A DNA stretch of 64,000 nt from Euglena gracilis (Eukaryota), in NCBI GenBank assembly GCA_039621445.1, contig CP154954.1, positions 18,338,642 through 18,402,641 on the forward strand, given 5' to 3'. The notes below the pieces were generated by a model. It did not search any database. It was not told the DNA's origin and saw only the letters and a list, made by a program, of their open reading frames with translations. The translations under genes were made by a program, and so were the position numbers. Positions 34,001 through 40,000 of this stretch are shown piece by piece. How positions within the stretch are numbered: position 1 is the stretch's first letter; each line of letters begins with the position of its first letter.

Positions 34001-37000
34001 AACCAGTTAGTCACTCTGAAAAAACCAGTCCCCCCCCCCCGGGGTCGGCCAGTGACTAAGTGATTGACTGTTCCCACCCCTTGGACTTGGGTTGGCTAAA
34101 TTGCACCCCCTCCTGCCTGCCTGCATAGCGCCACCTTGTACTTTGGACTTTGCACCGTCACGCAACAAGCCTTGGCAAGTCCCTGAACACCCCACCCCCC
34201 CCACAACCCCATGCAAATGCATTGCATTGCCGAGGAATGGGGAACCAAACAACCTGGTCGGCCGGAAGAATCGTTTCCAAGTCGTAGCTCAGGCACGGTT
34301 TCTCCGGCGAACTGAAAACAAGAAAAATCATTACAGAGGTTCACCCCCCAAAGCTTCTCAACCCAGGGGACAGCACGTCCGTTCATTACTGAACATCAGA
34401 TGGGCGGCCTTCCAACCACCATATGAACGTGCAATATCGAAATACCGGTCCATGCTTTTTGTACCCCTCTGTCACGGAGGTGTACCCTTTTTCAAACCAT
34501 GTATTTATACGTTGGACAGCCTTTTAAAATCCTTAAATTCTGCGACCAGGGGTTTTTTTAAAGACCGGGGGGGGGGCGGGCCCCCCCCCCCCCATCCACC
34601 CACCCCTGGGGTCGCCCCGGGGGCGGGGGACCCACTCAACTAATTTTCCCCGAAAATATTATATATATTATTTATAACATTATATTTTTTTATATTATAT
34701 ATATATACACACACACACACACACACACACACACACACACACACACACACACACACACACACACACACATATATATGTAAAACCCCCTCCCAACCCCCCA
34801 AATAACCCCCCCTATATATGTATATATGTATATATATTATATATTTATATGTAAAACCCCCTCCCCACCCCCCCCCCCCCAAATAACCCCCCCCCTCTCG
34901 GGGGCTGATTTCGAGCGCCCCTGGTTTCCTTTGGTTTTCCATGTAAAAAATAACACCCCCCCAAAAAACACCCCCCCCCTGGGGCCTTGGTTCGGGTGCC
35001 CAAATAACACACCGTAGGGGTGTTGTTTGGGGGGGGTTATTAAATATTATAATAATAAATACATATATTATATGTATATATTATACAAATAACACCAGGG
35101 GGAAATAACATCAATAAAAAGTCAGGTTTCAACGCTCTGAGAAATATTCCTTCATGATTACTACCACTACTAATACTATTTTTACTACACAATTCCTTTA
35201 TGGGTTATCATACCAGCGAATGAGAATGCACCCTCTTTGGTTCTTTCCTTTGGATCAGAAAAAAAATGCTCCCCTCAGAATGGATGTTCCGAAAAGATGG
35301 TTGCAGAGGTGAGCAGCAACTTGTATTCCACCATTTGACCCGTATGGCACAGCGATACAGCAAAGCGGCAATTCCCTTCCAGCGGTGCCATAAGATTGAC
35401 ATGATGGAAGTTGAAAAAAGATTGCATCCGGCTATGCAAAATGAAGCTGCCGCATTTTTCGGGAGAAAATGTCCCCAGAAGAGAAATTTTCAATGCCCCC
35501 CACATATACAACCCCTTCCTGTGTCCAACGACCGGGGAGCAGCCGGGGGGACATGGGTACTGGCAGAAAAGTTCCAAAAAAAAAGCCAATGCTCACTTAA
35601 TACCCTGCCCAAAGCCCCCCCAAAAAGCATTTTGGGCAATTAGACTTAGACATAGGGGTTCGTTGGATTCAATTTCACCCTGAGTTTCTAGCCAAGGTCC
35701 CAACGATATACCTGTCAGCAAGGGATGGGTAGGGAGGCTTTGAAAATTGTTCCTTCATGATTACTACCGCTACTATTATTACTATACTGTTCCTTTACGG
35801 GTTACCACACGAGCAAATGCAAATGCACCTTCTATGGTTCTTTCCTTTGGATCAGAAAAAAATGATCCCCCTCAGAATGGATGTCCCTAAAAGATGGTAG
35901 CAGAGGTGAGCAGCAACTTGAACTCCACCATTTGACCCGTGTGGCACAGCGACACAGCAAAGCGGCAATTCCCTTCCAGCGGTGCCAGAAGATTGACATG
36001 ATGGAAGTCGAAACAAGACTGCCATCCGGCGATAAGTATCTTTGAGGAGGAAATGCCCCCATATATGCACCCTCCCTCTGTCCAACAACCAATTTTTTTT
36101 AAAAAAAACTGTGCTCCTTTCTGAAAACGACTCTCACTTTTACTGCCACCCATAAATTTTAGAAGACTCGGAAGATTCTAGACCATACCATTGCTTATCG
36201 ACCCCCCCCCGGGGAGGGTGTCACTTTTCACTTTCAAAAAAAAAACAACAGTCCGTAACTTTTCAAAAACCAGTCACCCACTTCCAACAATGGGGGGGTC
36301 ACTTTGGCCACTCAAGCCAAAATGGCCTAAAACAATGGATTCTGGCCAACCTCCCCCCCCAAAAAATTCTGGCGCCTTCGGCTCAGGTTTGCCACTTTGG
36401 GCCATTCCTGGCCGACCCTGGGGGGGGGGGGGTCTGGAGCCAAAAACCAGCCAATTCTCTCCGAAAAAACCAGTCAGTCACCCCGAGGGGGAGGGGAGGG
36501 GCCCGACAGACATTACAAAATGGTATGCCCTGGACGTTGCACACATTCTGGTCCAATGAGGAAGATTTCAGTTCAAAACTGCAGTTTTTTGGGTCCACCT
36601 TGGTTGGGGAAGACGAGGAAATTCAAAAACAGCCAAAAAAAAACTGGACCATTTTCCTTCATCTGACAGCGACTTCAAACTGATGTGAGATCCGGGCAGC
36701 ATCCAGAGGTTTTTCATGACTGTGGACAGTTTGCAAGGGAAAGAGGACAGAGAATAATGGACCCGGGAGGGGAGAGGGGGTATAGATGCCGTCAGCCTCC
36801 TACCACGGGGTCGTTGGACATAGGGGGGGGGAATTAGTTTGACAGGCTGGTCTCCGGGGCGAGGTTAACTGTTCCTTGGGCAAGTTGTTTGGGGAGTGGC
36901 GTGCTCTGTACTTCATGACGAGCAACCCAATTGTGAACTGTCAGCGGGGGCACACCCCTTCGGTCATTGCACTTTTGCTGTTTCATTGCGTTGTCCTGGG

Positions 37001-40000
37001 GGCCAACCTTCTGGCCAACACCGCCGCCGGGGGAAGCTCCACGCCGTCCACCGTGATCGTGAGCAGCCCCCCGGCCACCGTCATCACAACAGTGCTCCCC
37101 GGTGCTACCGCCGGGGTGGGGGGGCCGATGGCCATGCCGGTGACACGCTGGGACTGGTCCCCGCAGCGAAAAGGAAATCCATCAAGCTGCATCATGATTT
37201 GAAGGCGGTTTCAGACGAAGACATCCAATTTTTTTTGAAATTGATCAAATTGCTGTTTTTTGAAGAAGAAAAAAACAGTGTTGAATAAAAAAGTAGTGTT
37301 AAATCAAGAAACGCCGGCTGTTGGAGAGAAAAGTAGAAGGGTGCGGGCCGCGCATGCTGGGTGTATGCGCACATCAGGGGTGCCTAAATGAGCGGTTGTC
37401 CGTGCACAAAATGACTTCATACACACAGCCATCTTCCAAAACACACCCGCCGTCCCAACGCCGTCGACCCGCCGTCCCAACGCCGGCATCCCAGCCTGTG
37501 CCCATGGACGTGAACCGTCCCTCCTGCCGGGCGCCCCTGCGCGTGAACACCAGCCCCACGCTTCCCGCCAGCGCCACTTTCCCCAGGTAGTGGTCGGGGG
37601 CAGGGCCGTGTGCCGGGTGGGGGCGGGGGATGGCATGGCAGGGAATTTTAATTAAAGACCTGGAATATGCAAAAAAATGCCACTTTTCCGAATTTCGATT
37701 ATGCAAAAAAACGCAAATTATGCAACTTGCATATCCGTATTGCACGAAGCTATGACATCATATATTTAACGTATCATCACAAACATCACACTGCAAACCA
37801 TAATACTAATGGGCTCATGATGCTAACGACGCTAGATTGGTAGGGTGTCAAGAGGGGAAAACACACAAAAGAAGTGGGTGACCAAAAGTGAGTGGGCGGG
37901 GACCCGACCCACTCACTTTTTCCCGAAATGGCCAACAATCGCGAAAAATGCTAAAAAAATTAGCACCTTTTTCAAAAAATTTTGGCGCCGAAAAGTATAT
38001 CCGCTTGGGGGGATCCCCCCCCGGGGGGGGCTCGGCCGGATCCACCCACCCAACCCTCCCCCCCCCCCCGGGGGTCCAAGACAAAAAAACCCCTGATGGC
38101 ACGGCAGCCGGGGGAGCCTGGCATCGCAGCCCATCTCCTCCGCGGCTTCCCTCGCCATCTACCTCACCTCTCCACCCCAGGAGGTTGCCACCTTGCGAGT
38201 CAGCCGGCGCCAGCCAAAATGACAACGCTCCGCAGGGGCCTGGAGGGGACTACGCAACATGACACGGAGGGTCGGGGTGGGTGGGGGCTCGGTTGAACCC
38301 AACGCCGGCACGCCATCCCCAGACTGACAGGAACGGCAAACCTTCAATAAGTATCGGAAGCGGGAAGGGGGATTGATCGGGGTGGGCACGGCATGTGGAA
38401 ACACATTTGGCGCACAGCGGACCTGGCGGCCACACCCACTCAGGTCCCCGCGAGGCCTTGGCCAAATAGGCGGTCAGGAGAAATCCGGGGACCTTGAGCA
38501 AATTCGACCCCCCTCTCAGGTGGGGGCAGTCCCCCGCTCTGACCAACCTCTCCTCCACCAGGCCTTCTCATGTAGGTAATGATGTAATATAAAGCAGTCT
38601 TTGAAACACACTGGTGCAAAAGTCTTTACGACAACCGCAATTTTTTGCCCAAGAAACCAATGTAACTCTGGCTGCCCGCATAGCTCCAGTTTCGGACATA
38701 CGCCACGTTGAAGCCTGTGATATACCCATCAAAAATGGTTTCCGCCCATTTTCCTCATTCCCCCCTCCTGAGTTATGAGCTCCCTGAAACTGCTCCGCAC
38801 ACGACAAGCCAAATTTTTACAAAAAATGGATCTTGGACCGTGTGGTAAAAGTAAAATGCATAATAAAACAATAATATTAAATTAATTGAGTAAAATAGTT
38901 AAAATAAACATCCTACAACTCTGGAACCCTGAGGAGTTAGGCTCTGGAGTTTGGTGCGTGACTGCTTTTGAAACAAGCATCAAAAAATAACCAAAACTCA
39001 CTGGTACCATAAAAGGCATTCAGAAAACCTTGAAAGAGCTTACCTCCCCCCCCCCTTGTCCAACGACCACTAATGTTCGTCTCCGACCGGGGGGGCGGTC
39101 GCTAAAATGGCCAATGTTCGTCTCCGACCAGGGGGGGTGGTCGTTAGACAAGGGGGGTGGACCCCAAGTCGGAGGAAAATTTACCATAGATAGGGGTATA
39201 TGGCCATTTTGGGGCTGTTTTTGGCCATTTATGCTATTTCTTGACTACGGTTGGCCACTTTTGGCCATTTTTGGACATTTTTGGGGCACTTTTGGGAATT
39301 TTTAGGCATTTTTGACCGCTTTTTGCCATGTTTGGTCGCTTTTGGCCACTTTTGGCAACTGTTGGCCACACTTTGGCCCCCTTTGCCCATTTTTGGCCAC
39401 TTTAGGCTGTTTTTGGCTACTTTTGGCCATTTTTGCCATATTTTTGCTATTTTTGGCAACTTTTTGGGCACTTTTGGCCATCCTTTGGCCATTTTAGGCC
39501 ATTTTGGGCTATTTTTGACTGTTTTTAGCCAACTTTTAGCAATTTTGGCCGAACCAACATCGTATACAAAAAGATCGTCTCTGACCGGGGGGGTGGTCGT
39601 TAGACAACCCGGTCGTGAAAGAGCTTAGGTCACCGCTTGGGAAAACTTATCGGACGAGCTGCCGGCCCCGAGCCAAGGCCTGGCCCTGGCGGTCCAGCAC
39701 CGCGCCGACCGCAAAAGGGCCCGCGAGGTCCGCTGCCACGATCCGCAGCCGGACGGAGTGGCGGCCGCCGGCGGGGAACGTCTGCCGGGTGACGGTAGTG
39801 GAGTCCCGGGACATCTTGCGGGGGCAGGCGCCGGCCGGGCAGGGGCCCTCCCCCGCCCCCCCCCCCCCCGGGGGGGGCCACCCCAGGGGTTTTTTAATAC
39901 CGGGGGGGAGGGGGGATCCCCCCCACCCACCCACCCCCTGGGGGCCCCCCGGGGGGGTCCCTGGGGACTCACAAAAAAATGGCTGAAGAAAAATCGCGAA

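Follow-up and report, generated by a model that had tools for sequence, protein, structure and literature searches.

A tandemly duplicated exon between nonconventional introns of a Euglena gracilis gene, with one probable constitutive copy and one probably weakened duplicate

We analysed a stretch of 64,000 nucleotides (nt) from Euglena gracilis (NCBI GenBank assembly GCA_039621445.1, contig CP154954.1, positions 18,338,642 to 18,402,641, referred to as the window), in which exon 7 of a minus-strand gene is present as two tandem copies between nonconventional introns. On balance, the constitutive exon is probably copy 1, the upstream one in the gene, whereas copy 2 is probably a weakened duplicate within intron 7 that would be mostly or wholly unused. 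We consider copy 1 the probable constitutive exon because the predicted pairing energies favour it and because copy 2 carries a lesion in the splicing code. All positions are those of the window, and the features are collected in Table 1.

Exon 7 and the following micro-exon

The search with the open reading frame (ORF) upstream of the repeat yielded EukProt EG_transcript_2083 (P0001, 887 amino acids [aa]) as the one close protein, which is also the only close relative among the 4 matches at an E value of 0.001 or less in an exhaustive HMMER search. Based on tblastn and spliced protein-to-genome alignment, the gene runs over 37.5 kb of the minus strand, and 34 coding segments are inferred between 41374 and 3903. 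These segments are mostly 90 to 100% identical to P0001, which assigns the window to Euglena gracilis itself or to a strain or allele very close to it.

P0001 reads ELPPAAVL, LEGNCRFAVSLCHTGQMVE, ILPV, and NQPTT in succession, the 19-residue exon being present once. In the window, both copies encode LEGNCRFAVSLCHTGQMVE in an open, gap-free segment with a 100% tblastn match to P0001 residues 169 to 187. Exon 7 is 57 nt long in each copy and lies in the same frame, giving 19 codons, with the boundaries at 35980-35924 and 35383-35327 by the splicing code described below and at 35979-35923 and 35382-35326 by the protein alignment, a slide of 1 nt. The exon copies are distinguished by two synonymous third-position transitions, GTG/GTA (35953 in copy 1, 35356 in copy 2) and CAC/CAT (35941 and 35344), with no indel and no stop. 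A first-pass annotation of this DNA had described 61-nt exons differing in their last residue (F/Y), as well as a frameshift on joining the two copies. The P0001 protein and the splicing code give 57 nt instead; P0001 reads MVE followed directly by ILPV, which leaves the TTC/TAC codon in the intron, and 57 nt being 19 codons, joining the copies would keep the frame.

Between exon 7 and the next exon, the gap in the protein alignment and the flanking splice arms point to a micro-exon of 12 to 13 nt with nonconventional introns on both sides, which was absent from the first-pass annotation. It would account for residues 188 to 191, ILPV in the reference transcript. We place it at 34272-34260 because the preceding arm pairs in register with the exon-7 donor, because the following intron fits the published code in full with 12 in-register pairs, and because the motif VEIL is conserved in a paralogue, the protein P0005. 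The A/V exchange in the micro-exon (ILPA in the window, ILPV in the transcript) is one of several differences between the two. Two other candidates were rejected, namely the aligner's own micro-exon at 33704-33695 (10 nt, LLPV), which is without the splice signals of 34272-34260, and a conventional GT-AG exon at 34316-34257 combined with a 63-nt duplicated exon, which is contradicted by the transcript protein.

The tandem duplication

The repeat search shows a tandem direct repeat on the minus strand (35166-35425 and 35763-36022) with an identity of 88% and a spacing of 597, in agreement with the duplication of about 280 bp seen in the first-pass annotation. A gapped comparison widens the repeat to 35134-35435 and 35737-36033 (86.8% identity over 304 columns, E value 3e-88) and adds a weaker upstream block (35497-35533 versus 36056-36090). 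Each repeat unit comprises about 300 to 350 nt, and the unique spacer between the two units about 203 nt. The tandem duplication is genuine and fairly old, being about 13% diverged. Among the 11 listed self-matches of at least 150 nt, it is the only local exon-bearing tandem repeat in the window, the remaining exon-bearing self-matches being old internal domain repeats of the gene, about 7.6 kb apart.

When the copy-2 ORF was searched against proteins of 57 to 184 aa, no match was seen and hence no independent ORF-level support for the duplication, and a 26-nt exon word common to both copies had 0 exact matches in metagenome contigs. None of the sequencing runs listed as matching sampled words of the region 33500-37400 is recorded as RNA, three rows with a small share of the words being marked as possibly RNA.

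Nonconventional introns and the splicing code

In the parts of the study by Nomura et al. 2025 considered here, the nonconventional introns of Euglena are described to follow the rule 5'-N3-CDG ... CH'G-N5-6, followed by an exon starting with R (PMC12501133), a signature which is found in 61.2% of the E. agilis nonconventional introns. According to the same parts of that study, the spacer lengths are constrained, the pairing adjoining the triplets is needed for splicing, and every tested single substitution in CAG or CTG led to a splicing defect in knock-in tests of the intron EaNC-INT1. For E. gracilis, the excerpts available of a survey (PMC11170887) describe a CCAGG/CCTG consensus and terminal pairing for the nonconventional introns.

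In the gene studied here, GT/GC-AG borders are impossible under any boundary slide in 32 of the 33 introns, the sole exception being intron 1 (GC-AG). Introns 6, 7, and 8 have no conventional-border option and show paired ends, which resembles the euglenid nonconventional introns as presented in the consulted parts of both studies (PMC12501133, PMC11170887). A full fit to the code is seen under a permitted slide for 13 of the 33 introns. A fully Watson-Crick triplet in register is found in 28 of the 33, a count that is optimised over slides and 4- to 7-nt spacers and is therefore biased towards pairing. The cognate donor and acceptor arms have a mean energy of -22.3 kcal/mol (n = 33), compared with -15.5 kcal/mol for 1,056 non-cognate combinations. 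Several other introns of the gene use complementary triplets different from CAG/CTG, such as CAC/GTG, CAT/ATG, ATG/CAT, and CAA/TTG.

For the introns around exon 7, the transcript-derived protein suggests that introns 6 to 8 are excised, the excision of euglenid nonconventional introns being reported to yield circular RNA. Measured against the euglenid code as given in the parts of PMC12501133 referred to above, intron 8, and intron 6 when spliced to copy 1, agree with the signature in full, in the spacers as well as in the purine that begins the exon. Both have the strict 5' motif, and the strict 3' motif is present at the copy-1 acceptor (CTG-GCACC before exon G) and at intron 8 (CTG-GCCCC before exon A). 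Intron 7 departs from the published code with the triplet pair CAA/TTG, its 5' end being a derivative of the strict motif (GTT-CAA, in copy 2 ATA-CAA). The copy-2 acceptor (ATG-GCACC before exon G) has ATG in place of CTG, the C of CH'G being replaced by A. The in-register pair runs amount to 12 for intron 6 to copy 1, 7+5 for intron 7, and 12 for intron 8.

Pairing of the competing arms

The intron-6 donor and the copy-1 acceptor form 12 in-register pairs at -26.2 kcal/mol with the full code, whereas the same donor pairs with the copy-2 acceptor at -19.8 kcal/mol, which is 6.4 kcal/mol weaker, the third triplet pair being broken. This break stems from a C to A change in copy 2, at the position equivalent to 35988, which is the sole substitution in the 20 nt before the exon. 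A scan from 37700 downward shows the intron-6 donor to be the best upstream partner of both acceptor arms, located 1,036 nt from the acceptor of copy 1 and 1,633 nt from that of copy 2. On the downstream side, the copy-1 donor pairs with the micro-exon acceptor at -18.9 kcal/mol (GTT-CAA with TTG-GAAAC before exon G) and the copy-2 donor at -17.4 kcal/mol (ATA-CAA with the same acceptor). By arithmetic from these duplex energies, the equilibrium preference for copy 1 at 37 C would be about 3x10^4-fold at the acceptor and about 11-fold at the donor, values which consider energies alone, while the actual choice also depends on proteins and kinetics. Unconstrained duplex scans for donor partners were uninformative, being dominated by G-rich low-complexity tracts.

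The copy-1 donor and the copy-2 acceptor reach -5.1 kcal/mol, which is weaker than all 33 cognate pairs and 99% of the 1,056 non-cognate pairs, and the combination fails the code. Use of the copy-1 acceptor together with the copy-2 donor is permitted by the pairing; the sequence between the copies would then remain in the product, where a stop is reached 14 codons past the exon (ORF 35887-36177).

These values agree with much of what the first-pass annotation had proposed from the letters, namely that both acceptors are complementary to the donor at 37016, that copy 2 has ATG for CTG, that both copies carry the same donor arm with a partner near 34277-34292 (found at 34291-34273, where it is the acceptor arm of the micro-exon), and that the copy-1 donor does not complement the copy-2 acceptor. 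Its further interpretation, that of an enforced exclusivity, is partly supported: the pairing would disfavour a direct joining of the copies, but no frameshift would result from it, and the combination of the copy-1 acceptor with the copy-2 donor is allowed.

Use of the two copies

Besides exon 7, the duplicated unit includes the 3' arm of intron 6 as well as the 5' arm of intron 7. Recognition of nonconventional introns proceeds through pairing of the donor-proximal arm (N3-CDG...) with the acceptor-proximal arm (...CH'G-N5-6 before R). Since copy 1 fits the code perfectly with the one upstream donor and forms the stronger helix at either end, it would normally be spliced into the mRNA, and copy 2 would lie inside the 1,651-nt intron 7, with the C of its critical CTG lost and with the same peptide as its product if used. 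The CTG to ATG change is expected to matter because single substitutions in CAG or CTG abolished splicing in the knock-in tests, as far as described in the consulted parts of PMC12501133. We infer from the signals in the DNA which copy is used, and also that the C to A change impairs splicing here. Nonconventional introns are reportedly removed after the conventional ones, according to the excerpts at hand of a further study (PMC6221363), so both alternatives would likely be present when the choice is made. As the 19 residues are identical, the choice of copy would add no protein diversity, and the single 19-residue segment of P0001 fits either copy.

Several observations weigh against a mostly or wholly unused copy 2. 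The copies differ at 2 of the 57 exon sites and at 33 of the 239 other aligned sites (with 7 further gap columns; one-sided Fisher p = 0.018, using the code-defined exon boundaries), and the exon and the proximal arms are better conserved between the copies than the flanks. Either selection acting on the two copies or a tract of gene conversion may underlie the low exon divergence. For a copy 2 that was never used, about 2.8 non-synonymous changes would be expected and none is seen, for which we estimate a chance of about 0.06, allowing for constraint on the copy-1 exon in any case; this is marginal, suggestive rather than decisive. Furthermore, 20 of the 33 introns fail the strict code under every permitted slide and are yet absent from the mRNA-derived protein, and the code failure of copy 2 is therefore no proof of its non-use. 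The -19.8 kcal/mol of the copy-2 acceptor equals or beats 39% of the real introns of the gene, and the copy-2 donor, which is intact, lies 1,054 nt from the micro-exon acceptor compared with 1,651 nt for the copy-1 donor. Finally, the intron boundaries derive from the protein of another strain or allele and not from RNA.

The best surviving alternative, possible though unlikely, is a true mutually exclusive use, where each transcript would contain one copy and the single arms would pair with the arm of either copy. Such an outcome would be silent at the protein level or would provide regulation through unproductive products. The intron-6 donor ranks first among the upstream partners of either acceptor, but the pairing of copy 2 is weaker by 6.4 kcal/mol and its CTG to ATG lesion affects the triplet itself, although many real introns of the gene have non-code triplets as well. 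The weak pairing of the copy-1 donor with the copy-2 acceptor (-5.1 kcal/mol) suggests that the two exons would not be joined, but the length of 57 nt gives no frame-based enforcement, and the copy-1 acceptor with the copy-2 donor is an allowed combination with a stop-containing product. The conservation of the exon and the proximal arms above the flanks, with synonymous exon changes only, would fit the use of both copies, but identical peptides offer no diversity to select. The duplication of an exon together with one stem arm is a proposed general route to competing structures and to mutually exclusive exons in the portions consulted of PMC6071210; those of the E. gracilis survey (PMC11170887) name alternative 5' and 3' sites, skipped exons, retained introns, and "overlapping" events, and no mutually exclusive exons. 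Mutual exclusivity would thus be plausible, not enforced.

A main use of copy 2, with copy 1 being removed within a longer intron 6, is improbable. The donor of copy 2 is nearer to the micro-exon acceptor and its 57-nt exon is intact and open, but copy 1 has the perfect code with stronger helices on both sides, and the mismatch to the CAG of intron 6 is a derived feature of copy 2. Even less probable is the inclusion of both copies, either in tandem, which would repeat the 19 residues in frame, or with retention of the sequence between them: 57 nt are divisible by three and the pairing permits the copy-1 acceptor with the copy-2 donor, but the segment is found once in the reference protein, the would-be inter-copy intron pairs at -5.1 kcal/mol and fails the code, and the retained segment meets a stop 14 codons after the exon. 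Equally improbable is a duplication that is an assembly or haplotype artefact in a genome rich in repeats, as assembly errors usually yield near-identical copies, the copies here show 13% divergence and indels, with about 203 nt of unique sequence lying between them, and 17 runs from 17 studies each contain half or more of the words sampled from 33500-37400, which supports the whole stretch and not the duplication specifically.

Relation to known systems

A close parallel to the locus is found in the docking/selector clusters of the insect Dscam1 type, which likewise consist of tandem homologous exons of equal length, with one arm facing duplicated competing arms. The exon 7 copies are equal-length, same-phase tandem exons, and one docking arm is complementary to the arm of each copy. 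The peptides of a mutually exclusive cluster would differ, whereas both copies here encode LEGNCRFAVSLCHTGQMVE. The Dscam1-type clusters rely on spliceosomal GT-AG introns, and one exon is de-represses there through the pairing, whereas the intron ends at the present locus would be specified by the pairing itself. Further differences are the identical peptides and the damaged selector of one copy, as well as the exclusivity itself, which is a prediction from sequence at this locus. An origin by duplication of an exon plus one stem arm, as seen here, was proposed by Ivanov and Pervouchine 2018 (PMC6071210, in the parts considered). That both exon 7 copies are used, one per transcript, as a docking/selector system created automatically by the duplication, seems doubtful to us.

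Tandem exon duplications can also decay into pseudo-exons. Such decaying copies likewise have the same length and phase, are located in an adjacent intron, and carry one splice-signal lesion, but the lesion of copy 2 lies in the triplet of a nonconventional intron and not in GT/AG, and the coding part of copy 2 is intact. Compared with the known euglenid introns, the new elements are one donor arm facing two homologous acceptor arms and two donor arms facing one acceptor arm. In a full-text literature search, mutually exclusive exons with Euglena nonconventional introns were not found among the matches listed. We regard the locus as a further case of a known kind of event, now in a new splicing context, combining competing pairings with exon duplication.

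Host protein and other features of the window

The P0001 protein has two MIB_HERC2 domains above the Pfam threshold, while the SAM, ART, and ADPrib_exo_Tox matches are weak and below the cut-offs. The paralogue P0005, which is 57% identical to P0001, passes the cut-offs for ART and ADPrib_exo_Tox. The domain mix of the two proteins is unusual, with an N-terminal domain that has no family assignment and occurs twice in P0005, a pair of MIB_HERC2 domains, a weak SAM match, and a C-terminal domain similar to ART or ADP-ribosyltransferase exoenzymes. The Pfam search found 0 families on P0001 residues 1 to 216, the N-terminus including the duplicated exon, and 0 families for 7 of 7 single-exon ORFs. 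The tblastn search with P0005 did not find the protein's own exon-7 region in the window.

Just upstream of the gene and on the same strand (44952-45922, minus), a further paralogue of the family is represented by its final two coding segments, which correspond to the C-terminal end of the ADP-ribosyltransferase-like domain and are 77 to 88% identical to P0005 and 51 to 82% to P0001. Downstream of exon 7, at 32879-33345 (minus), the spliced alignment could only be carried through with a segment of 11 nt, an intron of 52 nt, and an inserted codon, which leaves the exon structure of residues of about 218 to 242 uncertain; it may differ between the window and the reference transcript. The window contains simple sequence in the form of a long (GT)n microsatellite, A+T-rich stretches, and many poly-G/poly-C tracts (34700-34770; e.g., 10383-10632, 30396-30674, and 39890-40140), and dispersed repeat families, 70 to 80% identical, recur in the introns.

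Table 1. Exons, duplication units, and putative splice arms around exon 7, in the order of the gene
Feature	Position	Strand	Basis and remarks
Exon 6 (residues 128-168)	37017..37138	minus	Ends in GTGTT by the code; 97.6% tblastn identity over 41 aa; protein alignment permits 37016
Intron 6 5' arm, single docking arm, GGC-CAG-AAGGTTGG	37003..37016	minus	N3 spacer, CAG triplet, and post-triplet helix; full code
Duplication unit copy 1 (upstream in the gene)	35737..36090	minus	Repeat search and gapped comparison
Copy-1 acceptor arm, CAATCTT-CTG-GCACC, then exon G	35981..35995	minus	Full match to CH'G-N5 before R
Exon 7 copy 1, 57 nt, LEGNCRFAVSLCHTGQMVE	35924..35980	minus	Last codon finished by the G of the next exon
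Copy-1 donor arm, GTT-CAA-GTTGCTGCTCA	35907..35923	minus	Derivative triplet pair CAA/TTG for CAG/CTG
Inter-unit spacer, unique and unduplicated	35534..35736	minus	Gapped comparison
Duplication unit copy 2 (downstream in the gene)	35134..35533	minus	Repeat search and gapped comparison
Copy-2 acceptor arm, CAATCTT-ATG-GCACC	35384..35398	minus	Fails the code, CTG to ATG
Exon 7 copy 2, 57 nt, same 19 residues	35327..35383	minus	tblastn and comparison of the copies
Copy-2 donor arm, ATA-CAA-GTTGCTGCTCA	35310..35326	minus	Triplet and helix intact; two changes in the N3 spacer
Intron 7 3' arm, single downstream docking arm, TGAGCTACGAC-TTG-GAAAC, then exon G	34273..34291	minus	In-register pairing
Putative micro-exon, (G)ATTCTTCCGGCC, encoding ILPA	34260..34272	minus	Protein gap and flanking splice arms
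Intron 8 5' arm, GAC-CAG-GTTGTTTG	34246..34259	minus	Full code
Intron 8 3' arm, CAAACGAC-CTG-GCCCC, then exon A	33436..33451	minus	Full code, 12 in-register pairs
Exon after the micro-exon, starting with NQPTTPLGEGGGPATGQNDAAVKSP	33345..33435	minus	tblastn and spliced alignment

Implications

At the protein level nothing is at stake, as either copy gives the same 19 residues. Although the exon duplication as such is ordinary, the splicing system around it is unusual, and the locus represents a natural, internally controlled experiment, where homologous acceptors that differ at one position of the CTG triplet, together with near-identical donors, compete for single partners within one pre-mRNA. 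The choice of junctions would show whether the pairing of the ends and the triplet select the splice partner in vivo, what a triplet mismatch costs beside a long helix, and whether acceptor and donor choice are coordinated. If the mutually exclusive use were true, the locus would provide the first pair of mutually exclusive exons that rests on nonconventional introns, and would reveal in a natural setting how an acceptor with CTG changed to ATG competes with a perfect one in the same pre-mRNA. The use of both copies would indicate that nonconventional introns can yield mutually exclusive exons by duplication alone.

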